Shown here piece by piece: positions 1 to 48,775 of a stretch of 53,081 bases of DNA; position 1 is the stretch's first letter, and every line of letters starts with the position of its first letter. The position numbers were made by a program, and so were the translations under genes. This DNA is from an uncultured Bacilli bacterium (GTDB taxonomy: Bacteria; Bacillota_I; Bacilli_A; RF39; UBA660), in assembly GCA_944371305.1 (NCBI GenBank), contig CALVXM010000005.1, forward strand, positions 1 to 53,081, read 5' to 3'. Below the pieces are notes generated by a model. It saw only the letters and a program-made list of their open reading frames with translations. It was not told where the DNA came from and did no database searches.

Positions 1-582
1 TTTAGTAACTCCACTATTTAATACAACAGCATTTGCCCATTCTTGGTTATCATAGTTATACCATGATTCACTTTCATAGGCATACACCCAATTACTCCCA
101 TCATATTTAATTGGTATCATATTATTATATAACTTTGGTTTATTTGCTCCACTTGCATCTACATATTCATCATCTCCTGGAGTTGGATTGATTGGATCTG
201 TTGCCTCTCCATCAACACTAAAAATGCCATCTGGTTGTAATTCAAATTCATAATTATTACTCTTTACTTTTAATTTGGTTACTTTGCCATTTTCGTATTC
301 TACTTCTAAGACTTCCGCATTCCCTAAACTTACCATTTGACTGACATCTTCTTTGGTTACGCCATCAGCACATATATCAACACTTCCATCTAATTGATTT
401 TTCATTGCTGAAGTAGCGCAATAATTATTATTGCCACTTAATATCATACTTGCTTCTGATAATCCAGCTGATTTTCTTGCATCATTAATCACATTTAATA
501 TGATTGGTGTCGCTATAAGAGCTATTATAGCTAATATTATGATTACTGCCAATAACTCAATTAATGTAAATCCTTTTTTCAT
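1..582 (-). CDS. Type IV prepilin-motif protein, N-terminal part (runs off the window start); probable DGR-target family
   Basis: My translation from ATG 582: MKKGFTLIELLAVIIILAIIALIATPIIL... (class III signal GF|TLIE). It later reads YVDASGANKPKLYNNMIPIKYDGSNWVYA...EWANAVVLNSGVTK, which matches the 25191-27254 protein. Absent from the ORF track because no stop codon is in the window. Confidence 0.9.
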   Translation of the reverse strand, partial: MKKGFTLIELLAVIIILAIIALIATPIILNVINDARKSAGLSEASMILSGNNNYCATSAMKNQLDGSVDICADGVTKEDVSQMVSLGNAEVLEVEYENGKVTKLKVKSNNYEFELQPDGIFSVDGEATDPINPTPGDDEYVDASGANKPKLYNNMIPIKYDGSNWVYAYESESWYNYDNQEWANAVVLNSGVTK

Positions 583-31455: not shown

Positions 31456-31493
31456 CTAATATATTTTATGAAATATAATTAGTCTCCAAAACA

Positions 31494-31521
31494 AAAAAAG
31501 AATAAATTCAATTATTCTTTT
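31494..31521 (-). terminator. Intrinsic terminator after the TR unit
   Basis: Minus strand aaaagaataatt-g-aattattcttttttt. Confidence 0.7.
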
Positions 31522-31645
31522 AAGAAACTGTTTTTATTCTAGTTGAACATTACTAATATTTTTAGGTTTAACCTAGGGAATAAAACTTGTTTCCTATTGC
31601 TTCTCTTTATATAACCATAGTTACATAAATCTCAGTTTAAAAGGA

Positions 31646-31726
31646 ATCTGCACGGATGCCGTTGGTATTCGTAGGACTATTGTTGTTGATGTTGCCATTG
31701 TTATTGACGTTACGAACGTTAGACGT
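31646..31726 (-). repeat. DGR template repeat (TR)-like sequence, non-coding
   Basis: Minus strand acg tct aac gtt cgt aac gtc aat aac aat ggc aac atc aac aac aat agt cct acg aat acc aac ggc atc cgt gca gat (11 AAY of 27 triplets). Aligns without gaps to 31905-31985 and 32550-32630, with mismatches concentrated at TR adenines. Confidence 0.88.
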
Positions 31727-31752
31727 TATAACAGCTTTACACCCATATGCAC

Positions 31753-31782
31753 CACACCTTGCCATATTATCGGCAAGGTGTG
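31753..31782. other. Perfect 11 bp hairpin between the target gene stop and the TR
   Basis: cacaccttgcc-atattatc-ggcaaggtgtg, with no U-tract on the minus strand. Confidence 0.85.
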
Positions 31783-31823
31783 ACTGCTTTGTTTATGTTT
31801 TATTGGTTATTTATACCTTTGGC

Positions 31824-33299
31824 TCATTGCAAGGTGTATGGTGACTGGGCAGTACCTTCACCTCCTGTGAAGGTTAGGCCTGAAGTCCCTGACTTCAGAT
31901 GGATAACTGCACGCACGCCGTTCGCAAGCGTCGGACTTTTGTAGCTGAGGACGCCAGTGTTGTACACGACACGAACGATAGACGAACTATAACGATTCAT
32001 TAGCCAATAATAATTAAATACTGTTGGATTCTCAATGGTGTTAACATCGACAAATGTTTTGGTACTTGATGTTCCTAAATCGATATCATTTCCACTAAAC
32101 ATCTCTCCTATAGTTGGTAAGCCTACACTTGCTTGTAATGTCTCATCTTGGACATCTTTATAATTTTGTCCTATTCCTTCTACAAATGGATAATCGCCAA
32201 TATAAAATGCTTTGTTTCCTGTATAACGATAATCACTTGATATATTGTTAGCAAAATTATTCAATGGCGTATATATTGTATGACTTGTTGTTATTGTTTC
32301 ATTACTTCCATATCGACTAGTTGTTGGAAGTAATCCATTTAGTACTACTTTAATACTATCACTATCTTTACTTACTACTCTAAATGTACATTTATTATCA
32401 TCACCACAAGCTTTATCACTTCCACTATATGGAACATTGATATATTCTCCTACTTGCACATCACTTGTATTTGTGGCCTTAGCTGCTGTTTTATAATTCG
32501 ATATTAGAGTACCGTCCCCTTCGGTGACGGTTATATCAGAAATCTTGATAACTGCACGGACGCCGAGCGTAATCATCGGAGTGTCATAGCTGAGGGAGCC
32601 ATTGTAGTGCACACGACGAACGAAAGACGAACTATAACGATTTCCTAACCAGAAATAATCCTTTATATCTAAATAAGAATTTTGTCCTCCTGCTCTAGTA
32701 TATTGGGCTTCATCTAATAATCCTACTTTCTGACTTGTTGTTATTTCATCGACATCAGTATATATTCCTACATTAAATGTATTTTCAATAATTTTATTTT
32801 GAATACTACTATCTAAACTATTATAAAAATATTCATTTAGCCAATTGTTGATATAACTACTTTTATATTCTTCTTGCGTTTCCCATACTGCACTTGCTGG
32901 TTGAATAGAAACTAATGGTTGCTGACTAATTAAAGTCAAAGTTCTTTTCGCCACATCAAACTCTACTATTCGCCAATGATGTCCACCATACCATAAATGA
33001 TTATTACTTACTTCTTCATTTGTACCTTTATAATAATAAATATCTGAATTAGTAGTATCTCTTACTAAACCAGTTGTTCCCCCTTCATATCGGTTGAGCA
33101 AAATATCAATTAAATTAGGTACCTCTTCCTGAACATTATTAGAATTATTTAACTCATTCATAACATCATTTTTAAGTTTATCTAAAATTAATTTACGACT
33201 ACCTAATACTGTTAAAACAGCAAATATCAACACTAAAAACAAGATTAAAATTGAATAAATAATACCACTTAAAGCAAATCCTTTATTATTTAATTTCAA
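31824..33299 (-). CDS. Minor-pilin-like protein with two tandem VR-bearing domains; DGR target
   Basis: Start set at TTG 33299 (GAGGG RBS). NKGF|ALSGIIYSILILFLVL pilin-like N-terminus. Two repeats ending YFWLGNRYSSS...GVRAVI and YYWLMNRYSSS...GVRAVI. Confidence 0.85.
   Translation of the reverse strand: MKLNNKGFALSGIIYSILILFLVLIFAVLTVLGSRKLILDKLKNDVMNELNNSNNVQEEVPNLIDILLNRYEGGTTGLVRDTTNSDIYYYKGTNEEVSNNHLWYGGHHWRIVEFDVAKRTLTLISQQPLVSIQPASAVWETQEEYKSSYINNWLNEYFYNSLDSSIQNKIIENTFNVGIYTDVDEITTSQKVGLLDEAQYTRAGGQNSYLDIKDYFWLGNRYSSSFVRRVHYNGSLSYDTPMITLGVRAVIKISDITVTEGDGTLISNYKTAAKATNTSDVQVGEYINVPYSGSDKACGDDNKCTFRVVSKDSDSIKVVLNGLLPTTSRYGSNETITTSHTIYTPLNNFANNISSDYRYTGNKAFYIGDYPFVEGIGQNYKDVQDETLQASVGLPTIGEMFSGNDIDLGTSSTKTFVDVNTIENPTVFNYYWLMNRYSSSIVRVVYNTGVLSYKSPTLANGVRAVIHLKSGTSGLTFTGGEGTAQSPYTLQ
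31905..31985 (-). repeat. Variable repeat VR1 (C-terminal domain)
   Basis: Against the TR by hand: 16 of 30 TR adenines substituted, 6 of 51 non-A positions differ (all third codon positions). Confidence 0.88.
32550..32630 (-). repeat. Variable repeat VR2 (internal domain)
   Basis: Against the TR by hand: 18 of 30 adenines substituted, 9 of 51 non-A positions differ. Confidence 0.85.
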
Positions 33300-44287: not shown

Positions 44288-45067
44288 ATGAATGAAGAAG
44301 TCAAAGAAATTTTAAATAATGATTGTGGCAATAGTTGTTTATGTGAAGTTATTCAATGTTTAGTAGAATGTAAAGTTGGACCTACTGGAGCCACTGGGGC
44401 AACTGGGGCAACCGGTCCTCAAGGTAGAACTGGTGATTCAGGAGCTAATGGAGCTACAGGTCCTACCGGACCAACGGGACCAAGAGGAGCTACTGGACCT
44501 ACTGGACCTGCTGGAGCTACTGGAGCAACTGGACCTACCGGACCTGCTGGAGCTACTGGAGCAACCGGAGCTACTGGGGCTACTGGACCTACTGGGGCTA
44601 CTGGACCTACTGGACCTGCTGGAGCTAACTTAGATAGTTACGCTATGGTACATGATGAAACTAATTCCACTGTTCCAATGCAAAACCCTATTTTATTCCA
44701 AACAACTAACATTTCTAATAAAATTACATATAATCCTGCCACTGGTGATTTCTCAATTCCAGAACCTGGAATATATATAATTCATTGGTGGGTAAATGTT
44801 AGAAGTCACAAAAACGACGGTTTTGATTGCGAAGAGAGAGCTTTAGGAATTGAATTCCATCAATTTTGGCCTAATGACGTTTTAATTGCACACTCTTCTA
44901 CTCACAATAAACTTTCTTGTTGTGAAACAGGAACAATTAGTGGTAATGCTATTTTCGAAGCTCTTCCTGGAGCAAGCTACAGATTCATTAACACCTCTGC
45001 AGTTGATTTTGAATTAGTACCAAACGATTTATATTCTGCTTGTGTTTCTGTTACAAAAATCAATTAA
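44288..45067 (+). CDS. Collagen-like protein (BclA-like exosporium type)
   Basis: Cys-rich N-terminus, (GPT/GAT)n triple-helix region, globular C-terminal domain. Confidence 0.85.
44378..44626 (+). repeat. 9 bp-period coding repeats (Gly-X-Thr)
   Basis: Tandem ggacctact/ggagctact units. Confidence 0.9.
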
Positions 45068-47720: not shown

Positions 47721-48775
47721 TTATTGCAATTCATATGGTGATTCGGCAGTACCATTTCCTCCTGTGAAAGTTAGGGCTGAAGTTCCTGACTTCAGATAGA
47801 TAACTGGACGACAGCCGTACGCAGTCTCCAAAGGGTCGCTGCCTAGGACATCATAGTAAACGTAGCGAACAAGAGACGAACTATAACGATTTCCTAACCA
47901 AAAATAATCTTTTATATCTAAATATGAATTAGTTCCACCTGCTCTTGCATATTGGTCTTCATCTAATAACCCAACCTTCCCAGTTGTTGTTATTTCATCT
48001 ACATCAGTATATATTCCTACATTAAATGTATTATCTAATATATTATTTTGAATACTACTATCTAAACTATTATAAAAATATTCATTCAACCAATTATTGA
48101 TATAACTTGTTTCGTATTCTTCTTCTGTATCCCATACTGTACTTGCTGGATGAATTGCTGTTAATGGTTGTTGAGATACAAGAAGTAAAGTATTATTTGT
48201 AGTATCTATTTTCATTACTCGCCAATGATGTCCTCCATACCATAAATGGTTATTGGTTACAACATCATTTCCACCTACATAATAATAGATATTGCTATTT
48301 GTTTTATCTTGCACTAACCCTACTGTGGCTCCTTCTTGATATTGATTTAGGAGTTTAGTAATTGATGCATCGGGATTTCTAGGACAAATTTCGTCATCAA
48401 TTCCAAAATTTCCATCACTACATAATGTAAATGTATGAGTATTACTCTTTACTTTTAATTTGGTTACTTTACCATTTTGATATTCCACTTCTAATACTTC
48501 GGCATTTCCTAAGCTTACCATTTGACTGACATCATCAATTGTTACTCCATCATCATCTGTACAATATCTGTACTTCCATCTAATTGATTTTTCATTGCTG
48601 AGGTTGCACAATAATTATTAATGCCACTTAATATCATACTTGCTTCTGATTTGCCCGCACTCTTTCTTGCATCATCAATGACATTTAAGATAATTGGTGT
48701 GGCTATCAAAGCTATTATAGCTAATATTATAATAACTGCTAATAATTCTATTAACGTAAATCATTTTTTCTTCAT
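47721..48775 (-). pseudogene. Disrupted chimeric pilin / DGR-target gene
   Basis: ATG AAG AAA AAA TGA TTT ACG TTA ATA GAA (GGA>TGA at 48761-48763 in KKGFTLIE) and a 1 bp deletion near 48563. N-half matches 1-582 and C-half matches 31824-33299. Confidence 0.85.
47802..47879 (-). repeat. VR-like segment VR3
   Basis: Same flanks as VR1/VR2 (aatcgttatagttcgtct ... cagttatc), GC-enriched divergent interior, one codon shorter than the TR. Confidence 0.75.

Follow-up and report, generated by a model that had tools for sequence, protein, structure and literature searches.

A template repeat with non-adenine differences from its two neighbouring variable repeats in a putative satellite unit of a diversity-generating retroelement of an uncultured Bacilli bacterium

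Introduction

Among the described diversity-generating retroelements (DGRs), the closest to the element considered here are those of the MutS-like (MSL) type, named architecture D by Wu et al (2018, PMC5758913) and exemplified by the Legionella DGR. In Thiohalocapsa PB-PSB1 (Doré et al 2024, PMC10907252), the described targets of incomplete loci match a distant template repeat (TR) at every site that is not an adenine. A survey gives one TR for 216 of 271 DGRs with several variable repeats (VRs) and more than one for the rest, as in Stenotrophomonas SKA14 with 2 TRs and 6 VRs (PMC6642488). In Treponema denticola, TRs are reported to vary among strains, one of them at a single silent site (PMC4891356). 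In the present study, we analysed a stretch of 53,081 nucleotides (the window; NCBI GenBank assembly GCA_944371305.1, contig CALVXM010000005.1) from an uncultured Bacilli bacterium, in which a TR, named TR-A, stands behind a pilin-like gene with two VRs (VR1 and VR2) and differs from both of them at adenines and at other bases.

As in the sections of the architecture D report that we consulted (PMC5758913), the element has a TR followed by MSL, avd and reverse transcriptase (RT) genes on one strand, an IGxxxSQ motif in the RT, AAY-rich TRs, and C-type-lectin-like targets, some of which are remote from the RT. In contrast to that architecture as described there, at least five TR cassettes with conserved flanks of their own lie on separate contigs, against one RT, and each cassette is found behind a two-VR gene. 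Complete and incomplete DGR loci in one genome, and some VRs without a perfect TR, are shared with Thiohalocapsa PB-PSB1, whose described targets are conflict-system proteins in a large genome with several RTs, whereas here one RT, a 1.1-Mb genome and pilin-like targets are found (PMC10907252). The surveyed DGRs with several TRs likewise have more than one TR per element and DUF1566/CLec targets; cassettes that stand as satellites, remote from the RT and with their own conserved hairpin and 3' element, are not described in the consulted parts of that survey (PMC6642488). Targets that persist with VRs whose TR is gone are known from T. denticola as well, but the consulted account of that species has one TR per genome with variants among isolates, and here several TRs occur within one genome (PMC4891356). 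In the consulted portions of the literature on DGRs and type IV pilins, the only link was a brief mention of a VR-holding "G-type pilin" domain (PMC11661182).

Results and Discussion

All features of the locus are on the minus strand (Table 1), and TR-A is located 80 nt past the stop codon of the target gene. The 73-nt cores of TR-A, VR1 and VR2 were compared in codons, from the first AAC after TCT to ...CGTGCAG. VR1 was changed at 14 of the 28 adenines of TR-A and at 6 of its 45 other bases (Fisher p=0.001), and VR2 at 16/28 adenines and 9/45 other bases (Fisher p=0.002). An earlier note, made from the letters of the window alone, had claimed four non-adenine differences common to both VRs, and the codon comparison found them exactly so: GTC to GTG, AAT to xAC, CCT to CCG and ACC to xCG, with the same letter in both VRs, at codons 5, 6, 16 and 19 (triplets 7, 8, 18 and 21 of that note, which began two codons earlier). 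Each of the four is synonymous and falls on a third position. The third position of codon 14 is a fifth site that is changed in both VRs, to unlike letters, and the non-adenine differences private to one VR number 2 in VR1 and 5 in VR2. Altogether, third codon positions hold 13 of the 15 non-adenine differences (p=0.006), or 9 when these are counted as 11 events (p=0.045); VR2 has non-synonymous mismatches to TR-A at codons 15 and 17. It was also correctly noticed that the two VRs differ from each other at non-adenine sites of the TR (6 such sites among 19 positions). With 6 and 9 non-adenine differences, VR1 and VR2 cannot be accounted for by a single TR mutagenised at adenines only, as the note had held.

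The several TR variants that had been anticipated do exist in the genome, as five intact cassettes, a truncated cassette remnant at the end of one contig (C16) and two VR/TR hybrids. The window is the entire contig C5 of this 1.14-Mb assembly (27% G+C, 47 contigs, 92% complete), and the other intact cassettes are TR-B (C15), TR-C (C23, beside the RT), TR-D (at the end of C1) and TR-E (C30). Each of the five has a 5' hairpin, then the TR, then a 3' element some 120 nt long, and the DNA outside these parts is unrelated among them. TR-A was the nearest intact cassette for both VRs: TR-B to TR-E have 14-21 non-adenine mismatches to VR1 and VR2, and the hybrid on C11 has 9 to VR1 and 8 to VR2. Two VRs on C25 have TR-B as their exact parent, being changed at 15 and 12 of its adenines and at no other base, so the method was able to detect clean pairs; no child VR of TR-C, TR-D or TR-E was found in the assembly. 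TR-B to TR-E form a patchwork, in which TR-C agrees with TR-B at codons 10-12 and with TR-D and TR-E at codons 15-19.

The suggestion that dispersed TRs cross-targeted VR1 and VR2 gained no support from these counts, and no VR of the "GTT CGT" kind bears content of the "GCT TGG" kind. The other suggestion, a replacement or drift of the TR later than the last retrohoming, is the better fit: among the intact cassettes of this genome and of ten related genomes, only TR-A has AAT as codon 6, ACC as codon 19 and ATC as codon 22. By these states, and by a 2-nt deletion in its 5' homology, TR-A is the derived partner. Outside the intact cassettes, AAT6 recurs in the C11 hybrid alone and ACC19 in both hybrids (C11 and C1:97554), which look derived from TR-A. 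A check for mosaics found no two-segment combination of assembled TRs that fitted VR1 or VR2; a mosaic origin was rejected since the VR letters at the mismatch sites are the common state of the TR family and not that of any one TR. The other TRs were likewise ruled out by mismatch counts as parents of VR1, VR2 or VR3, a third VR in the window.

The element is a DGR. RTs of the DGR type have the motifs [ILV]GxxxSQ and YxDD. The sole RT match in the genome (PF00078, RVT_1; 60.9-62.8 bits; C23:1302-1928) is an intact open reading frame (ORF) of 331 aa with IGNLTSQ and YMDD, and is of the DGR type by these motifs together with the general RVT_1 model. On C23, TR-C is followed by the MutS-like and Avd-like ORFs and then by the RT. 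The Avd-like ORF, which precedes the RT, matched bAvd with E=1.6e-9 and 38.6 bits, just below the Pfam cut-off of 40, and the NCBIfam Avd model with E=5e-10 and 39.6 bits, below the cut-off of 80. The MutS_I-like ORF has 136 aa (E=2.4e-5, 25 bits against a cut-off of 20.6), and no HRDC match was found among the three RT-locus ORFs, which were the ones scanned against Pfam there. A small MutS-like ORF and an Avd-like ORF without an HRDC match place the element in the MSL type (architecture D). In addition, TR and VR differ at adenines, cleanly for TR-B and the C25 VRs and with an adenine bias for TR-A and VR1/VR2. VR and TR share a GC-rich 3' end after which they diverge, which would correspond to the initiation of mutagenic homing site and its TR counterpart (IMH and IMH*), and a predicted hairpin follows the VR. 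The VRs also have the expected placement in a C-type-lectin-like fold according to the structural model of the target. A remnant of the 3' end of a second RT gene, 65 aa long with a stop, was observed at C2:104304-104519 (L061); it has 61% identity to residues 261-331 and sits between AbrB-like and mfd-like genes, with no TR close by.

Nine orthologous target proteins from public assemblies, with identical first 110 residues, carry four VR allele sets. In VR2, 15 of the 17 codons that hold an adenine in TR-A vary among them and 0 of the 7 without adenine; in VR1, these numbers are 14/17 and 1/7. Outside the VR cores, 86 of 443 columns vary. VR1 and VR2 have thus diversified along the adenine pattern of TR-A, and this variation between lineages would be only indirect evidence of ongoing homing. 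Codon 22 is Val in 18/18 VR copies and ATC in TR-A; the templates that wrote them therefore had GTx there, not ATC. At codon 17 of VR2, xTG is found in 7 of the 9 orthologues, against ACG in TR-A and ATG in the C11 hybrid. In one cluster (P0004), five members that differ elsewhere in the protein have the same VR1, and their VR2 is one residue apart. Because VR pairs appear stable within lineages, homing at the target locus is infrequent, judging from these alignments. The first domain of the target was observed to be mosaic between lineages (residues 111-200 of P0003, P0004 and P0122-P0125); one mosaic block resembles the VR3 and C1 paralogues, which suggests gene conversion among paralogues.

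Of 18 other genomes of the genus, 11 contained the cassette, as did 0 of 12 genomes from other genera. The RT orthologue (71-89% identity) is present as a single copy in 6 genomes of the genus, and the layout recurs in which a gene carries two VRs at distances of about 930 and 250 nt on the upstream side of a TR. Clean pairs with no non-adenine differences occur at three loci, L018 and L028 (two VRs each) and L020 (one VR). In three other genomes, VRs that belong to a single gene have non-adenine differences in common when compared with the sole similar TR, 4-10 in G014, 8 and 8 in G002, and 5 and 5 in G004, where the VRs match the TR type of G001 and G008. One further TR (L010 of G013, where the RT search was negative) has merely 18 adenines and a VR-like look. 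From these patterns, TRs in the genus turn over, probably by recombination between cassettes with common flanks.

We propose that a chromosomal DGR has one of its satellite units in the window, consisting of the two-VR pilin-like gene and its own TR cassette 80 nt downstream, and that the RT, Avd and MutS-like protein are encoded once, on C23, beside another TR. A Mur ligase gene follows TR-A downstream in the window (Pfam scan), so the unit has no RT of its own. TR-A RNA would be reverse-transcribed in trans by the C23 RT with errors at adenines, and the complementary DNA would replace VR1 or VR2, anchored at the shared GC-rich end ...CGTGCAG; the direction of transfer would be set by the bases that follow, TTATC after the VR and ATTCC after the TR. 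TR-A would represent the parental lineage of VR1 and VR2, homing would be rare, and the TR would have been altered after the most recent homing, either through point mutation or through exchange between homologous TR cassettes or alleles (recombination or gene conversion), or through the two together. The private ATC22 and the four synonymous differences common to both VRs would then lie on the TR side, and the private differences (2 in VR1, 5 in VR2) may be later VR mutations or traces of earlier TR alleles. On balance, we lean towards such turnover of the template after the last homing as the best explanation of the mismatch between TR-A and its VRs.

Several points weigh against template turnover. 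Homing activity at the locus would be deduced from comparison of sequences. Contigs break at TRs and VRs in this 92%-complete, 47-contig genome, and a closer TR allele could be among the unassembled parts. At least 5 changes and an indel in about 85 nt are much for point mutation; beside first 110 residues that are identical in nine orthologues, such a density would favour replacement by recombination. The C25 children do not adjoin TR-B in the assembly graph, and writing across loci may occur. As codon 17 of VR2 indicates, VR1 and VR2 may have had different parent alleles. Furthermore, the contigs from other samples (four runs from four studies, collected at 80% likeness, paralogues included) are mixed with paralogues, and their differences are known only as listed.

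An explanation by a repertoire of TRs acting in trans is less probable and is the main rival. Here, one or two other TRs, such as a TR-A-like allele missing from the assembly or, in the case of VR2, a template resembling the C11 hybrid, would have written VR1 and VR2 through the shared flanks, and TR-A would be one donor of several. Incomplete loci served in trans have been described for Thiohalocapsa (PMC10907252), and the genome offers five intact cassettes, yet TR-B alone has children in the assembly. A hint of writing across loci comes from these exact children on C25: the end of C25 has a 77-nt overlap with the ends of C30 (with TR-E) and C16 (with the remnant), and the start of C15, upstream of TR-B, departs from it at 6 of 105 bases. 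The assembly graph thus links the C25 VRs to TR-E or the remnant and not to TR-B, and a synteny check left the order after C25 undecided, the flanks being on separate contigs in every relative that has both. C15 starts exactly on a VR boundary, as would be expected if the VR was too variable to assemble. The C11 hybrid would clear both non-synonymous mismatches of VR2 (codons 15 and 17), but it has the GTC, AAT, CCT and ACC of TR-A, so the four shared differences persist. Moreover, TR-A was unbeaten by any assembled TR, and in relatives with clean pairs a single adjacent TR serves both VRs of a gene (L018, L028, L008).

It is improbable that the mismatch is an assembly chimera, in which TR-A of one co-existing strain was joined to VRs from another by way of the conserved tail and hairpin. 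The locus is indeed polymorphic between samples, and assembler overlaps are 77 nt. In run X15, a contig bridging TR-A and VR1 shows 47 differences over 443 nt, against 3 in 545 in the flank, and carries the letters of TR-A at 31962 and 31965; these two sites change to TR-A letters among the VR1 differences listed, 9 of which, out of 11, are at TR-A adenines. However, a contig from a different study (X3; record 16, 31689-32076, 8 differences), which reaches from the 5' part of TR-A across the whole of VR1, has the window's letters at 31962 and 31965. Both states occur, and the mismatch is therefore not peculiar to one assembly. The window's exact protein was found on 4 contigs, and a like mismatch is present in the three other genomes mentioned above. 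Least probable of all is that TR-A is unchanged and that the non-adenine differences arose by RT errors at other bases or by selection after homing. Such substitutions are reported in 868 of 1,874 surveyed TR-VR pairs, with a mean of 1.5 per pair (PMC6642488), but 8-12% of bases differ here against a survey mean of 2.6%. This reading would also demand four identical changes in two separately written VRs with a strong third-position bias, and, with all TRs of the genus compared, it is the states of TR-A that stand out.

TR/VR mismatch at non-adenine sites is common and by itself needs no new mechanism. Less usual is a very small gut genome in which one RT and at least five cassettes accompany a large family of pilin-like lectins, and this layout of one RT with several cassettes is common to much of the genus. 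DGR finders limited to the surroundings of the RT, or to clean adenine-only pairs, will miss satellite units. If VRs record older template alleles, template turnover becomes open to study. A bolder and, at present, doubtful proposal is that one RT serves at least five self-contained TR RNAs, which would write other loci (TR-B to the C25 gene) and recombine together, so that scaffold codons would evolve by template exchange on top of adenine mutagenesis. If this were true, more than 20 pilin-like surface proteins of a 1.1-Mb genome would be diversified at two levels.

Table 1. Positions of the repeats, cassette parts and pilin-like genes in the window
Feature	Position	Strand	Description
TR-A	31648..31731, core 31648-31720	-	28 A in 73 nt; ends GCAG, then ATTCC
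VR1	31907..31997, core 31907-31979	-	5' flank same as VR2; ends ...GGCGTGCGTGCAG, then TTATC
VR2	32552..32642, core 32552-32624	-	Shared 5' flank AATCGTTATAGTTCGTCT reaches 32642; ends ...GGCGTCCGTGCAG, then TTATC
Hairpin 3' of VR1	31880..31898	-	8-bp stem CTGAAGTC/GACTTCAG, begins 8 nt past VR1 end
Hairpin 3' of VR2	32511..32531	-	DNA fold -8.4 kcal/mol, z=-2.9, 0/200 shuffles as stable
5' hairpin of TR cassette	31753..31782	-	11-bp stem, fold -14.7 kcal/mol, z=-6.2
Conserved 3' element of TR cassette, about 120 nt	31525..31647	-	ATTCCTTTTAAAC...ATTCCCTAGG...CCTAAAAATATT...AGAATAAAA
AT-rich hairpin and T run	31492..31521	-	RNA fold of 31470-31790 and sequence
DGR target gene	31824..33299	-	491 aa from TTG start; longest ORF extends to 33395
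Paralogous target gene with VR3	47721..48773, VR3 core 47804-47876	-	Repeat families D2, D9
5' part of pilin-like paralogue	1..582	-	N_methyl E=7.6e-7; TIGR02532 E=2.5e-8; 3' end outside window

A repeat search gave TR-A, VR1 and VR2 as three copies of one family (D4; 31643-31755, 31902-32014 and 32547-32659). In the fold scan, predicted hairpins follow VR1, VR2 and VR3. That of VR1 is weak on energy alone (z=-1.9, 9/200 shuffles as stable), and hairpins of its type also stand behind the C-terminal VRs on C10, C22 and C29 and behind VR3. Among ten VR-like copies, 8 end in ...GCAG and 2 (VR3 and C29-6633) in ...CCAG; the bases that follow are TTAT in 9 and TTCT in one (C10). In contrast, all 5 intact TRs have the GCAG end followed by ATTCC.

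The 5' homology of TR-A, GTTATAACGTCT, is 2 nt shorter than the VR flank, GTTATAGTTCGTCT, by a 2-nt deletion relative to the VR flank and to the TR-A-like TRs of relatives. In alignments, the 5' hairpin of the cassette is kept in every complete cassette of this genome and of its relatives, and a terminator scan takes this TR hairpin for a terminator of the opposite strand. The 3' element is 77-89% identical in the other cassettes, and the DNA past it is unrelated; from this conservation, it is probably the portion of the RNA required by the RT complex. Searches of the cassettes against Rfam gave sub-threshold matches alone, RT-14 at 27-34 bits against a gathering score of 48.1 (27 bits and E=0.18 for the 3' element) and RT-9 at 29 bits against 46.1. 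When 21 copies of the 3' element, which are too alike for this purpose, were folded together with RNAalifold, 16 pairs were predicted, with 0 compensatory changes. The AT-rich hairpin with its T run is likely to be the end of the TR transcript; it was not flagged by a consensus terminator scan, and a promoter scan gave no convincing TR promoter. Downstream of TR-D, a tRNA gene follows directly (L052 2654-2726, C1).

The two hybrids are pilin-like genes in whose last part the coding 5' flank of a VR is combined with a 3' end of the TR type, giving ...RA(D/Y)SF-stop. The hybrid C1:97554 (C1:97431-98460, L014) retains the entire 3' element, and C11:37372 (C11:37331-37460, L054) retains its adenines. 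Loss of the DNA between a VR and a TR located 259 nt downstream would yield exactly such a form, and we infer this origin. In all four runs compared, one contig was observed that joins 31720 to 32625, fitting the C11 hybrid. The C1 hybrid has a 6S RNA gene at a distance of about 900 nt (L014 407-588).

The target protein consists of a prepilin-like N-terminal helix and two C-type-lectin-like domains with a VR at the end of each. Its database copy, P0001, has 491 aa and begins MKLNNKGF. The sequence KGFALSG lacks Glu at +5 and N_methyl gave no match; the prepilin motif is seen in many homologues and paralogues of the target, with PF07963 present in many of the homologues and N_methyl matched by the paralogue at 1-582. 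Pfam DUF6273 matches the target with E=8.8e-8. The AlphaFold model has a predicted local distance difference test score of 80.6 and a long helix at residues 6-49. By VIA-align, residues 271-465 resemble the C-terminal domain of Lcl of Legionella (Z 8.3, root-mean-square deviation (rmsd) 4.3, 120 aligned) and T. denticola TvpA (Z 7.2), and residues 99-250 resemble C-type lectin domains (Z 5.5-5.9). For both VR-bearing domains, many C-type lectin domains were found at Z 5-6, and these Z values are moderate. For residues 58-268, the match is to the N-terminal part of an IgA peptidase, that of Thomasclavelia ramosa (Z 15.3, rmsd 2.6, 173 aligned, 21% identity), which was also the sole match passing E<0.001 in a Foldseek search with the whole model. 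The part that resembles this peptidase is the first lectin-like domain (DUF6273; window about 32490-33120). In a sequence search of the PDB with the target, the best match had E=0.13.

VR3 was described in the earlier note as more distant and one codon shorter, and the alignment to TR-A agrees, with 18 substitutions at adenine sites, 15 at other sites and 3 gap columns. It matches no TR in the genome. A VR4 of another family was also claimed there but none was located: a scan of the window with the two flank motifs (a 15-nt 5' flank with at most 3 mismatches and a 13-nt 3' block with at most 2) matched three VRs and TR-A alone. In the VR3 gene, TGA takes the place of the conserved Gly codon of the prepilin motif, and a frameshift follows some 60 codons further on, after ...GSTDI. 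An alternative genetic code was rejected for this TGA, as TGA closes 97 of 566 long ORFs in the genome and is therefore a stop codon here. The gene is probably a pseudogene and, with the TGA and the frameshift in it, VR3 is probably a fossil. The paralogue family is very large for a 1.1-Mb genome; its N-terminal pilin-like module, taken from C25:11553-12244, has about 26 matches, spread over 16 other contigs.

The sequencing runs that contain the window come from chicken gut, and no RNA run was among those listed. Among metagenome contigs, seven related loci were found, none with a TR-type end; one near-identical contig stops short of VR2. In the assembly, the short contigs C45, C46 and C47 have 51-55% G+C against 27% elsewhere and are probably foreign to the bin. 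The assembly break between the end of C18 and the start of C30 falls on a 39-nt tandem repeat within a gene. In the window, the ORF at 44288-45067 contains about 30 tandem copies of a 9-nt unit (44377-44646, plus strand; repeat family D1).

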